From a virus: a DNA stretch of 28,503 bases. This document shows, one piece after another, positions 7,988 through 28,180 of this stretch. The stretch is taken from UHGV virus genome UHGV-0003692. The stretch is one strand, 5' to 3'. The translations under genes were made by a program, and so were the position numbers. Below the pieces are notes generated by a model that saw only the letters and a program-made list of their open reading frames with translations, made no database searches and was not told the DNA's origin. Position 1 is the first letter of the stretch, and every line of letters starts with the position of its first letter.

Positions 7988-9975
7988 TAACCCACCCTCA
8001 CCTGATTACTTCGCATGACCTGAGCATTTGCAGACTGTTGCCGACGTGCAACCTCATTACCGACAGCGTGCGGGTCTCCGCCACCGTAAATGTGGTAGGT
8101 ATTTTGCTGGTTAACCTCTGTCACTTTGCCACTAATTCCCGCCACGGCAGCCTTATTAATCAGCTCTCGAGAATAGATATTTCTTCCATTCTCATGCTGG
8201 ATAATGCTGCTCATCAATGCTGACATGGTTTGCGGATCGCTCATATTCAGGGCAGCCCGGGGATCCACTCCCAGTCGTTGCGATACAGCCCTGATATACG
8301 CAGTTGTGTTGTTATTATCAGACGCAGGTGCCCAGGTAGAGATAATTTTCTCCACGCTGTTTATTCCACGTCCGGCGTACAGCATTAACTGACGAGCAAG
8401 AGCCCGTAATCCATCAAAAGCAGTTTCAAATCTGGCAAATCGCCCGCCCGGGCGTTCAAGAGAAGCCCCTGCCTGACCAGCAAAATTAAGGTTTCCCGGA
8501 TTGTTATTCCGTTCTCCTCGTTTCGTAGCCTGTGCATATTGTTCCGGCTCATCATCACCAAACCAGCCGCGTACCGTCCGGCCCACGCTGCGAGGATCGA
8601 ATCCCCAGTGCTCTTTAATCCAGTCGGCAGTACTGTTAGCGCTGTCTGTAACCATCGGCATCGCTGACGGATTTTCGCTGCCCTGATTAAGTATCTGTTT
8701 GCTGATGCTGACTGCATCAGCCCAGCGGCCATCTTTGATAGCGTTGAGCAGGTCGGCGATCATGTTCAGCATTTTGCTGAATTCGCCCATCTGGTCGATG
8801 AAGTTGCTGAAATCCCACTTCAGGGACCATGATTTGGGGTCAATATTGAGCAGTTTCGCCAGCGCTTTCGCCAGTTCATTAACAGACCCTTTCAGGTCAC
8901 GAACCATCTTCAGCGCGGCATCGACCTCCGGCTTCCACTTGCCCCAGTCAATCAGGCTGTCGCCGCCTTCCTTCCAGGTCTGATAGTCCTCCCACAGAAG
9001 GGCAATCCCCGCCGCCAGCGCGGTAATGAGGCCAATCGGCGACATCCAGAACGTACTGTTTAGAATGCGCAGCGCAATCGTCAGCGCGCCAAACAGCGAG
9101 ATGAGCTCCCGCGTTTGCTTATCCAGCGATTGCCACCAGGTGATAAGGCTGGATGTTCCCTCAATTAGCCTGAAGAACAGCCGCCCGATGATGTCTCCGA
9201 TCGCCAGAATGCCTTTTATGGCTTTCGTCAGGGTCTGCTCGATACGAGGGAAGTTGTCCAGGATATGGCGGCGCAGGGTGTCCAGCGAACCAGCAAGCCC
9301 ACCCGCAAGATTAGAGCCGATTTTGTCACGGGCCATGCCTGCCATCGCGCCGAACTCGCGCAGGGAGGTCATGAATTTGTTGGAGCTTCTGGCCGCCTCG
9401 TCAGCATTGAAACCGATAGCTTTCGCCATTGCGCTGTACTGCCCGGAGAAACCACCCACACCCCGGCGCATCGCCATAAGGGTATTTTCGTCAATGCCCA
9501 GCATCTGCGCATACTGGTTAGCCCGGTAATACGGCATGCCGCTGAGCTTCTGGCCTACACCCGTAAAAATAGCGGCCATGTCACGCATGTTACCGCTGGC
9601 ATCACGGGTCTGTACGCCCAGGCGATTCAGAAAGCCTTCTGCACCGGGATTGTTACGAATAAACCGGGAGAGGCTTTCCAGAGAAGATCGCGCAGCGTCA
9701 ACACTGCCGCCAACCTGCGAAACCGCATAGCCAATAGACTGAATCCCCTGGACTGTCGCGCCGGTGCGCTGTGACGCCCGGTAGAGATTATCCAGACCGG
9801 AGGCGATCTTAGCCGTGAAGGCCACCACGGACAGCGCAGCTCCTTCAACAGCCAGCCCCATTTTGATGACATTTGCAGTTGTACCGGCGAGGACAGAACC
9901 GAACTTTTTCGCTCCTGCATCATCCACATTGAAGCCAAGCGAGACGAGGAAATCTTTAATAGTTTCAGCGTTCAT
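7987..9975 (-). CDS. Tail tape measure protein
   Basis: Largest ORF of the tail module, immediately after the chaperone; Ala/Gly/Leu-rich helical N-terminal part. ATG at 9975 (MNAETIKDF) preceded by GGAGAGAGG; the track's earlier start at 9996 lacks a ribosome-binding site. Confidence 0.7.
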   Translation of the reverse strand: MNAETIKDFLVSLGFNVDDAGAKKFGSVLAGTTANVIKMGLAVEGAALSVVAFTAKIASGLDNLYRASQRTGATVQGIQSIGYAVSQVGGSVDAARSSLESLSRFIRNNPGAEGFLNRLGVQTRDASGNMRDMAAIFTGVGQKLSGMPYYRANQYAQMLGIDENTLMAMRRGVGGFSGQYSAMAKAIGFNADEAARSSNKFMTSLREFGAMAGMARDKIGSNLAGGLAGSLDTLRRHILDNFPRIEQTLTKAIKGILAIGDIIGRLFFRLIEGTSSLITWWQSLDKQTRELISLFGALTIALRILNSTFWMSPIGLITALAAGIALLWEDYQTWKEGGDSLIDWGKWKPEVDAALKMVRDLKGSVNELAKALAKLLNIDPKSWSLKWDFSNFIDQMGEFSKMLNMIADLLNAIKDGRWADAVSISKQILNQGSENPSAMPMVTDSANSTADWIKEHWGFDPRSVGRTVRGWFGDDEPEQYAQATKRGERNNNPGNLNFAGQAGASLERPGGRFARFETAFDGLRALARQLMLYAGRGINSVEKIISTWAPASDNNNTTAYIRAVSQRLGVDPRAALNMSDPQTMSALMSSIIQHENGRNIYSRELINKAAVAGISGKVTEVNQQNTYHIYGGGDPHAVGNEVARRQQSANAQVMRSNQVRVG

Positions 9976-10605
9976 TATCCTCTCTCCATTTCTCAATGCG
10001 CCGCTGGTTATCCGCTTTTACCGCCAGATGGTCATTCAAGAGAGCAATGTCGTACAAATCGACAGAGCCATCTTTAAGTGCTGTATAAGGAATTAACCCG
10101 GCGTCAACCGGATTGAGAAGGTAAGACAGCCCGTCCGGCAGGCTGTTAAACGTCAGCCCTGTTGCAGGCTCTGCGTCGTGCTGGTAAGGGGTGTAGGCAA
10201 AAAATTTCCCAGCGAATCGGCGACCACCCGCGCCACCAGATGCAGCATGACCAGCAAGTCAATATCATCAAACATCAGTTCGCCCCGGGTAAATACCGGA
10301 ACCCATCCGTCCATATGACGCCGCGATACCACCGCAAGACAGGGATGAATAATCGCACTGGTGTCATCTTCTGTCAGGGAAGACAGTTCCTCAGCGATAC
10401 GCGGGAGCATGGTTTCAAACACCGGTTTTAACTGCTCGAATTTCACGGTGTCGATTTTGCCATCAGCAGGCAAACGGGAGCGAATGCTCCCGAAATCTGA
10501 CATCATTCCTGCCAGCACCGGCAGAAGTTTGCGGGTCACTTTCAGCTGATCAAAAACGCTGAGTTTTGCCGCGCGATATTTCACGCCTTTGATTTCGAAT
10601 TCCAT
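9965..10605 (-). CDS. Tail assembly chaperone -1 frameshift product (lambda G/GT-like)
   Basis: Near the 3' end of the chaperone gene the minus strand reads CTG-GGA-AAT-TTT-TTG (slippery G_GGA_AAT, complement of plus 10204-10210). The -1 frame is open from there for about 80 codons and ends at TGA 9965-9967, just inside the tape-measure start. Confidence 0.45.
10153..10605 (-). CDS. Tail assembly chaperone
   Basis: 150-aa ORF between tail tube and tape measure genes; ATG at 10605. Confidence 0.55.
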   Translation of the reverse strand: MEFEIKGVKYRAAKLSVFDQLKVTRKLLPVLAGMMSDFGSIRSRLPADGKIDTVKFEQLKPVFETMLPRIAEELSSLTEDDTSAIIHPCLAVVSRRHMDGWVPVFTRGELMFDDIDLLVMLHLVARVVADSLGNFLPTPLTSTTQSLQQG

Positions 10606-27042: not shown

Positions 27043-27219
27043 TCATTTCCTCGCACGATGTCTTAGCCACCGGATATCCCACAGGTGAGCTGTGTAATTG
27101 AAGGTTTTTACGTCAGATTCTTTTGGGATTGGCTTGGGTTTATTTCTGGAGCGTTTCGTTGGAAGGTATTTGCAGTTTTCACAGATTATGTCGGTGATAC
27201 TTCGTCGCTGTCGTCTCAT
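27043..27219 (-). CDS. ninE: NinE protein
   Basis: 58-aa product from ATG 27219 ([27 protein letters not shown]...) matches lambda NinE as recalled; AGGAGGG ribosome-binding site; ATGA overlap with the methyltransferase stop. Confidence 0.75.
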
Positions 27220-27743
27220 GCCGCCCTCCTGACGCCCTGCCCGATCGCCATCAATGCCGCTTTGGATACGGTAGTAAACATCCGTCGAGGACTGATGAAC
27301 GGTCGCCAAATCAGCAGCATGGAGCCTTTGCTGTTTCCCTTCTTCTCCAGCCCCGTCGATGGTTCGATAAAATTAATCCGTCCATCAGTGATAATGCGAA
27401 CTTCGTCGACACTCTCCAGAGCCTTGCTGAACCATCCGACTGACATATCCTCTGGCACAAGCATCACTACCGTCTGTCGCTGTTGTATGCACTGCTCAGC
27501 GGCTTTTTCCACCCACGGCCTGATATTGCTGTACGGTGGGTTATTCCAGATTGCACCGTGGCTTATCCACTCAGAATTGAGCGCGTCGTCGGCCTCAGTT
27601 AGCCAGTGAGCACACAGAGCATTTTTGTCGCTCGCTGCCGAATCCAGCCAGAATCCAAACTCAATATCCAGTGCATCAAAAAGCCAAAGCGGCGTTTGCC
27701 AGCAGTCCTTGTCGTGTGCTGGCGTATTTGATTTGATAGTCAT
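27216..27743 (-). CDS. DNA N6-adenine methyltransferase (phage Dam-like)
   Basis: 175-aa product from ATG 27743 (ATGA overlap with the NinB stop); contains the NPPY catalytic motif (WNNPPYS) of N6-adenine methyltransferases. Confidence 0.7.
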
Positions 27744-28180
27744 GCAGCCCGATCTCCCCATCGCGCTTTCCACTCCAGAGCCAGTCGCGCTTCGTCTGAC
27801 CACTTAACGCCACGTTCTGTACCGAATGCCTGTATAAGCTCTAATAGCTCCGCAAATTCGCTTACACGCATCCTGCTGGTTGACTGGCCTATTACCACAA
27901 AGCCATTCCCGGCAAGGTTAGGAACAACATCCTGCTGCTTTAATGCTGCGGTAAACACACACTTCCAGCTTTCTGCATCCAGCCAGCGACCATGCCATTC
28001 AACCTGACGAGAGACGTCACCTAAGCAGGCCCATAGCTTCCTGTTTTGGTCTAAGCTGCGGTTGCGTTCCTGAATGGTTACTACGATTGGTTTGGTTGGG
28101 TCTGGAAGAATTTGCTGTACTGCGTGAATAGCGTTTTGCTGATGTGCTGGAGATCGAATTTCAAAGGTTAGTTTTTTCAT
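27740..28180 (-). CDS. ninB: NinB recombination protein (Orf family)
   Basis: 146-aa ORF; translation (MKKLTFEIRSPAHQQNAIHAVQQILPDPTKPIVVTIQERNRSLDQNRKLWACLGDVSRQVEWHGRW...) essentially identical to lambda NinB as recalled. Confidence 0.9.
   Translation of the reverse strand: MKKLTFEIRSPAHQQNAIHAVQQILPDPTKPIVVTIQERNRSLDQNRKLWACLGDVSRQVEWHGRWLDAESWKCVFTAALKQQDVVPNLAGNGFVVIGQSTSRMRVSEFAELLELIQAFGTERGVKWSDEARLALEWKARWGDRAA

Follow-up and report, generated by a model that had tools for sequence, protein, structure and literature searches.

UHGV virus genome UHGV-0003692, a 28,503-nucleotide (nt) stretch of DNA analysed here at its full length (the window), carries an overlapping pair of open reading frames (ORFs) between its tail tube and tape-measure genes, as placed by Pfam and phrog matches; all genes near this site are on the minus strand. 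The first ORF of the pair encodes a tail assembly chaperone that matches PF21822 (Phage_TAC_15) with 104.6 bits (gathering cut-off, 22) over residues 6-138. The second is in the -1 frame relative to the first and carries a DUF6889 domain. A preliminary description of this DNA had read the pair as a programmed frameshift of the G/GT type known from phage lambda. The gene order, the absence of a start codon from the -1 ORF, an in-phase slippery run and the conservation of the arrangement all support that reading, and we consider it very probable that a lambda G/GT-type programmed -1 ribosomal frameshift adds the DUF6889 extension to the chaperone. The coordinates of the locus are collected in Table 1.

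Table 1. Features of the tail chaperone locus and its immediate neighbours (window coordinates; aa, amino acids)
Feature	Coordinates	Strand	Basis
Tail assembly chaperone gene, frame 0, 150 aa, 'G'-like product	10605-10153	minus	Pfam Phage_TAC_15 E=7e-30; phrog_1688 'tail assembly chaperone' E=3e-64
Slippery run GGGAAATTTTTTG, three overlapping in-phase heptamers	10210-10198	minus	sequence reading
-1 frame extension, putative 'T'-like domain, 81 codons including two re-read	10210-9965	minus	DUF6889, phrog_4364
Block of suppressed synonymous variation, slip site plus ~45 nt 5'	10257-10198	minus	same-codon fraction
Tape-measure protein gene	9975-7987	minus	phrog_2276 'tail length tape measure protein' E=9e-282
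Tail tube gene, directly upstream of chaperone	11049-10609	minus	Pfam KPP10_Orf10 E=6e-60; listed also as Phage_Tube_PhiTE
Tail sheath gene	12205-11060	minus	Pfam DUF3383 E=5e-101; phrog_205 'tail sheath' E=1e-135

Near the end of the chaperone gene, the chaperone frame reads TCG CTG GGA AAT TTT TTG CCT on the minus strand. The heptamer G_GGA_AAT, followed by more T, had already been pointed out here, and at 10210-10204 it does fall in the X_XXY_YYZ phase with respect to the 150-aa ORF. The same 13 nt hold two further in-phase heptamers, A_AAT_TTT (10207-10201) and T_TTT_TTG (10204-10198), which overlap the first and had been overlooked. All three lie 16-18 codons ahead of the frame-0 stop codon.

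From position 10210 the -1 frame is open for 81 codons (GKFFAYTPYQ...WREDNER; GKFFAYTPYQHDAEPATGLTFNSLPDG...IEKWREDNER) and ends at a TGA (9967-9965) 11 nt past the tape-measure ATG (9975-9973), in agreement with the earlier estimate of about 80 codons and a stop just within the tape-measure gene. The extension matches DUF6889 (PF21829) over residues 41-79 with 73.3 bits (E=1.3e-20; gathering cut-off, 23.9), and phrog_4364 with E=2e-23. Its first 51 codons include no ATG, GTG or TTG, and codon 52 falls inside the conserved domain; the extension therefore has no usable start for conventional initiation. When ten enterobacterial relatives are aligned by codon, many -1 frame columns hold a single amino acid encoded by three to four different codons. 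Since amino acids are kept while codons vary, the extension appears to be under purifying selection in the -1 frame, as expected of a real coding region. The overlap between the extension and the tape-measure gene is kept in enterobacterial relatives, which suggests translational coupling of the two. In the window, this overlap of stop and start reads ATGAACGCTGA (9986-9965, minus strand), and the tape-measure ribosome-binding site, GGAGAGAGG, lies within the last codons of the extension.

The slippery run is conserved in relatives: GGGAAATTTTTTG is identical in the window, in ten distinct phage genomes (Mulock, YP3, SEN34, GZ7, ST16-OXA48phi5.2, Wanchaivirus PDP110P2, Omnitron, ST11-VIM1phi8.3, EKP1 and Hafnia yong1) and in one Escherichia coli prophage, the predicted fusion proteins of which are 55-97% identical, and the Ser and Leu codons immediately before it differ from genome to genome (TCG CTG, AGC TTG, AGC CTG, AGT CTG, TCA TTG, AAC CTG). 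The -1 frame is open up to the tape-measure start in all of the relatives that share the 13-mer. In three relatives, the -1 frame has a stop codon 3 nt 5' of GGGAAAT, so a shift there could not occur earlier than the run, and if the TTT right after G_GGA_AAT is taken as the anchor codon, the frame-0 stop follows it at a distance of 30-66 nt. With a -1 stop on its 5' side and the frame-0 stop on its 3' side, the shift is therefore boxed into the slippery run.

The two-frame arrangement extends to much more distant phages. With the predicted fusion as query, tblastn returned 40 phage records, all as two pieces, with identities down to 31-39% in phages of Bordetella, Providencia, Ralstonia, Acinetobacter, Burkholderia and Edwardsiella; the pieces were in frame 0 and frame -1 in all 20 of the phage records that were then read. 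The upstream ORFs of distant relatives are Phage_TAC_15 proteins in each of eight tested, and diverse extensions match DUF6889 in each of 14 tested. When IMG/VR was scanned with an alignment of the extension, we recovered 80 diverse loci, of which 78 have the extension in the -1 frame behind an ORF of 122-236 aa; of the other two, one is at a contig end and one was a script miss that proved to have the same arrangement when checked by hand. The arrangement is likewise kept in all 21 annotated relatives. Stop codons in the -1 frame of related phages would have spoken against the preliminary description, and across these 21 relatives and 80 IMG/VR loci there is no conserved -1 stop. Of the 50 lineages left after dereplication, 44 carry one or more perfect in-phase heptamers at this same L-G-N/P-F site; the remaining six carry an N_NNT_TTT near-heptamer instead. 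Among close IMG/VR relatives, the run is T6 in 75 of 80 and T5 or T7 in none, with five left unscored because of different locus offsets. One locus (L045, IMGVR_UViG_643348546_000003) has lost a single base in GGACGGGCTG, about 85 nt beyond the run on its 3' side, and this cuts the -1 ORF to 38 codons. This type of 1-nt deletion is found in one of 77 scorable close relatives and is most simply explained as a sequencing error or a decaying prophage.

We considered whether the heptamers and the open -1 frame could be due to chance, or could be a relic, with the 150-aa chaperone as the sole product. There are 27 in-phase heptamers in the 8405 codons of the window's 37 minus-strand ORFs, and a lone heptamer within an overlap of ~35 codons is expected by chance about 10% of the time, and is unremarkable by itself; the failure to find a stimulatory structure (see below) also fits this explanation. 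However, the -1 frame behind the window's other heptamers closes within 3-29 codons, with one exception at 27339, whereas here the 81-codon -1 ORF also matches a Pfam domain (E=1.3e-20), which places the whole arrangement far beyond chance. Purifying selection on that domain across Proteobacteria, the invariance of the 13-mer beside varying codons, and the presence of the locus in many E. coli genomes (a 1.2-kb region around it is matched in 315 of 5426 complete E. coli genomes, with at least 95% identity in 293) also argue against chance or a relic, which we regard as extremely improbable. The exception at 27339 is an in-phase G_GGA_AAC inside a Dam-like methyltransferase ORF (27216-27803, with an NPPY motif), after which 98 codons are open in the -1 frame (27043-27339, minus strand). 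We rejected this as a second frameshift: the long -1 ORF is the next gene, which we take to be ninE-like and which has its own ATG, and the heptamer is a coincidence.

The DUF6889 ORF could instead be a separate small gene with its own, possibly non-canonical, start. This is how it has been annotated: the Prokaryotic Genome Annotation Pipeline (PGAP) predicts a 54-aa 'DUF6889 family protein' that starts with the CTG at window position 10129 (9965-10129, equivalent to L002 2272-2436), ORFs of 41-69 aa are called at this place in other records, and phrog_4364 is a family of such stand-alone calls. Yet ATG, GTG and TTG are absent ahead of the DUF6889 domain in the window, and the starts called for stand-alone proteins are at non-homologous positions that often remove a conserved LPxGED motif. 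Indeed, 21 of the 50 lineages wholly lack a possible -1 frame start codon ahead of LPxGED, and the possible starts of the others are at non-homologous positions. Moreover, the DUF6889 ORF invariably lies in the -1 frame, and in every case it overlaps the 3' end of the chaperone gene at a slippery run; an independent gene would need neither property. We therefore judge a separate gene to be very improbable.

A third alternative is transcriptional slippage, in which RNA polymerase would add an extra U on the T6 run to generate an in-frame fusion mRNA. The window has a T6 run, and a DNA variant with T7 encodes exactly the predicted fusion, such that a transcript with one additional U would yield the same protein. 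This variant is the source of the only fused protein that we found (P0001, 213 aa), encoded by a Logan SRR23924998 contig from a 98% identical relative, in which the run reads GGGAAATTTTTTTG (L013 1895-1910). The T7 version has no full-length, full-identity match in complete E. coli genomes, and is found in none of the 75 scorable close IMG/VR relatives. We rejected P0001 as evidence of a natural in-frame fusion; a homopolymer error or a rare mutant is the likely explanation. Efficient transcriptional slippage usually requires runs of about eight or longer. Relatives with the same architecture lack even a long run, as in Bordetella (GGGAAATAC), or have only T4, as in Acinetobacter and Burkholderia (AAATTTTATT and CCCTTTTATT), and all relatives keep the codon phase of the heptamer, which is relevant to ribosomes and not to RNA polymerase. 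We consider transcriptional slippage highly improbable.

We propose that most ribosomes would terminate in frame 0 to produce the 150-aa chaperone, and that a minority would move back by one nucleotide on GGGAAAUUUUUUG and read on in the -1 frame. The product would be a 213-aa fusion of chaperone residues 1-134 to a 79-residue extension that includes DUF6889. The shift most likely occurs on A_AAU_UUU, where tRNA-Asn would exchange AAU for AAA and tRNA-Phe would move from one UUU to another; G_GGA_AAU may add to slipping, as may the P2-type U_UUU_UUG. Choosing among the heptamers hardly matters for the product, since slipping on the first or second is predicted to give the junction ..SLGNFFAYTP.. 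(213 aa) and slipping on the third ..SLGNFLAYTP... By analogy with lambda gpG and gpGT, the chaperone part would attach to the tape-measure protein, the extension would bring in the tube protein and so start tube polymerisation, and the finished virion would contain neither product.

Several observations weigh against this proposal. We found no report in the literature of experimental detection of the fusion for the SEN34-like lineage to which this virus belongs. No 3' stimulatory structure was evident, with folding z-scores of -0.25 for the 97 nt 3' of the site and +0.66 for the 101 nt around it, and RNAalifold applied to ten relatives predicted no 3' helix and next to no covariation. An AlphaFold model of the 213-aa fusion, made with P0001 and 20 chaperone homologues as input, is unreliable, with a mean predicted local distance difference test (pLDDT) score of 60.7 that falls below 50 in the extension. 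A Foldseek comparison of this poor model with the PDB gave no fold match at E≤0.001, and a PDB sequence search with the fusion gave no match either. Lastly, G_GGA_AAT, the heptamer named in the preliminary description, has a poor A-site tetramer for E. coli. The missing 3' structure is not disqualifying, since lambda G/GT frameshifting itself is described as low level (PMC5009743). Because the extension model is unreliable and no fold was matched, the binding roles proposed above are transferred from lambda by analogy only, on the basis of position and architecture.

The identity of the slip site can be narrowed using published measurements and the diversity of the family. In E. coli, the hierarchy of shift-prone tetramers is A_AA.G > U_UU.Y > C_CC.Y > A_AA.A, with others barely or not shift-prone, and heptamers of the forms H_HH.U_UU.Y and V_VV.A_AA.R are among the most efficient (Sharma et al., 2014; PMC4066793). 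A_AA.U_UU.U belongs to the efficient class because it fits H_HH.U_UU.Y; G_GG.A_AA.U falls outside it because A_AA.U is a poor A-site tetramer and not among the six found to be shift-prone, and U_UU.U_UU.G is weak in the same assay (PMC4066793). Among the relatives, Bordetella-type lineages have G_GGA_AAT alone (TTG GGA AAT ACT), some Acinetobacter lineages have A_AAT_TTT alone, Burkholderia types have C_CCT_TTT, Ralstonia types have G_GGT_TTT plus T_TTT_TTC, and Providencia types have T_TTT_TTT. Nonetheless, 47 of the 50 lineages share a Phe TTT codon with a T before it (N_NNT_TTT), which corresponds to the middle heptamer of the window. Based on the E. coli measurements and this family-wide conservation, we rank A_AAT_TTT first as the most likely slip site, with the other two heptamers as possible contributors. 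We thus depart from the preliminary description, which had placed the slip on G_GGA_AAT: the heptamer 3 nt downstream appears to be the better candidate.

Synonymous variation is suppressed at the slip site and immediately 5' of it. For twelve-codon segments with their first codon at 117-126 (10257-10198), the same-codon fraction in ten relatives is 0.82-0.86, compared with 0.56 gene-wide, and this peak is the maximum over the entire fused reading frame. Dual coding does not explain the 5' part of the peak, because the -1 frame is untranslated there. Within the conserved block is a Shine-Dalgarno (SD)-like GGTGGTC (GGUGGUC in the RNA) at 10228-10222, 11-14 nt 5' of the heptamers, with a calculated duplex to the 16S 3' end of -7.1 kcal/mol, the strongest anti-SD site in the gene. 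The -1 frameshift of E. coli dnaX uses a 5' Shine-Dalgarno-like stimulator together with a 3' hairpin. GGUGGUC could be a counterpart of that 5' element, since its spacing is suited to a dnaX-type stimulator; unlike dnaX (PMC10885494), the site described here has no 3' hairpin, and the SD-like match is weak, without a GGAGG core. Fewer than half of the lineages (23 of 50) have a similar match at this spacing, and the motif derives from Val-Val codons; for these reasons, we treat an SD-like 5' stimulator as a lead and have not adopted it. Possible explanations of the conserved 5' block are a 5' stimulator, a weak hairpin and a recombination block. One could also imagine that two features tune the shift in place of a 3' RNA structure: three stacked in-phase heptamers would offer ribosomes three successive chances to slip, and a conserved 5' element (10257-10211, including GGUGGUC) would act on the translating ribosome like the 5' stimulator of dnaX. 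We think this unlikely, but if it were true, the 5' peak of synonymous conservation would mark a new class of 5' stimulator for phage tail-chaperone frameshifts.

The chaperone frameshift of lambda gpG/gpGT is reportedly the subject of work by Levin, Hendrix and Casjens in 1993 and by Xu, Hendrix and Duda in 2004, 2013 and 2014. As in lambda, the ORFs described here form an overlapping pair between the tube and tape-measure genes, the second being in the -1 frame and without a start. The G/GT arrangement is kept among long-tailed double-stranded DNA phages despite low sequence similarity (PMC5009743). The lambda proteins gpG and gpGT are made at a ratio of about 30:1, with the G part binding the tape-measure protein and the T domain binding and recruiting the major tail subunit, and both are absent from the virion (Atkins et al., 2016; PMC5009743). 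We detected no similarity to lambda gpG or gpT: at E≤0.01, Pfam returns only Phage_TAC_15 and DUF6889. The likeness to lambda's G_GGA_AAG drawn in the preliminary description holds for the phase of the heptamer; the analogy is imperfect at the A site, where the heptamer ends in T and has Asn AAT in place of lambda's highly shifty Lys AAG. The heptamer also overlaps two others, and the virus is contractile-tailed, whereas lambda is a siphovirus.

A closer parallel in tail type is P2, a contractile-tailed E. coli phage with a chaperone pair just ahead of its tape-measure gene. According to the passages of PMC3931495 that describe it (citing Christie et al., 2002), the P2 gpE/gpE+E' frameshift uses a T6G slippery sequence, which is the third heptamer here (T_TTT_TTG), and E' has no ribosome-binding site and runs into the start of the gene after it. 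Frameshift efficiency is 2-3-fold higher in P2-like phages (PMC5009743). By contrast, we detected no sequence similarity to P2, and the family-wide element here is N_NNT_TTT rather than T6G, with many relatives having only T4. The nearest parallels are the orthologues in Klebsiella phage Mulock (MN098327, CPT_Mulock_014/015) and Burkholderia phage Magia (MT701587, CPT_Magia_015/016), which share both Pfam families and the gene order. In Mulock, GGGAAATTTTTTG is identical, and the fusion predicted here is 57% identical to the orthologue; Magia has C_CCT_TTT, and there the identity is 36%.

The window is the late part of an E. coli prophage, a SEN34-like myovirus. The nearest named phages are Escherichia vB_EcoM-606R2 and its relatives (97%), Yersinia YP3 (85%) and Salmonella SEN34 (76%), the last of which is a myovirus with lambda-like early genes (PMC5261728). 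In a 99% identical E. coli prophage annotated by PGAP, the tail module comes after lambdoid genes for late control and lysis and after terminase, portal and head genes; genes for a baseplate of the Pam3/E217 type come after the tape-measure gene. Rfam and tRNA scans of the window gave no matches. The C-terminal third of the tape-measure protein (residues ~442-650) matches phrog families named endolysin and tail injection transglycosylase, and an orthologue is named 'lytic transglycosylase catalytic' by PGAP; in Pfam at E≤0.01, the protein has a weak match to PhageMin_Tail only. In the orthologous E. coli LWY24 prophage, the RefSeq name of one protein (L183 24696-25448) is 'xxxxx family membrane-puncturing spike protein', apparently a leftover placeholder.

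The GenBank records of Mulock and Magia already contain a joined coding sequence, 'tape measure chaperone frameshift product', at the orthologous position. These annotations are predictions too, and our literature search found no paper on phage Mulock, on DUF6889, or on a frameshift in the DUF6889 family; the paper describing SEN34 does not mention a frameshift (PMC5261728). Among the records listed, the frameshift is unannotated in RefSeq, in SEN34 and in four Escherichia phage records. Every RefSeq record that we inspected has the extension as a free-standing 'DUF6889 family protein', with a CTG start in the one record whose sequence was read, and some Klebsiella prophage records label it 'NTP pyrophosphohydrolase' and begin it at an internal ATG. 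The CTG and internal-ATG calls look like workarounds by gene callers for an unannotated frameshift.

From domain content and gene arrangement, we assign DUF6889 as the putative frameshift-added 'T' domain of Phage_TAC_15 chaperones in simple myophage tails of the Pam3/E217/phiTE type. A frameshift of this kind is a textbook feature, and its presence here would leave the understanding of frameshifting and of tail assembly unchanged. Its value is mainly for annotation, in that it corrects the role of DUF6889 and refines the likely slip site: among Phage_TAC_15/DUF6889 relatives, the conserved signal is N_NNT_TTT rather than a lambda-type heptamer.

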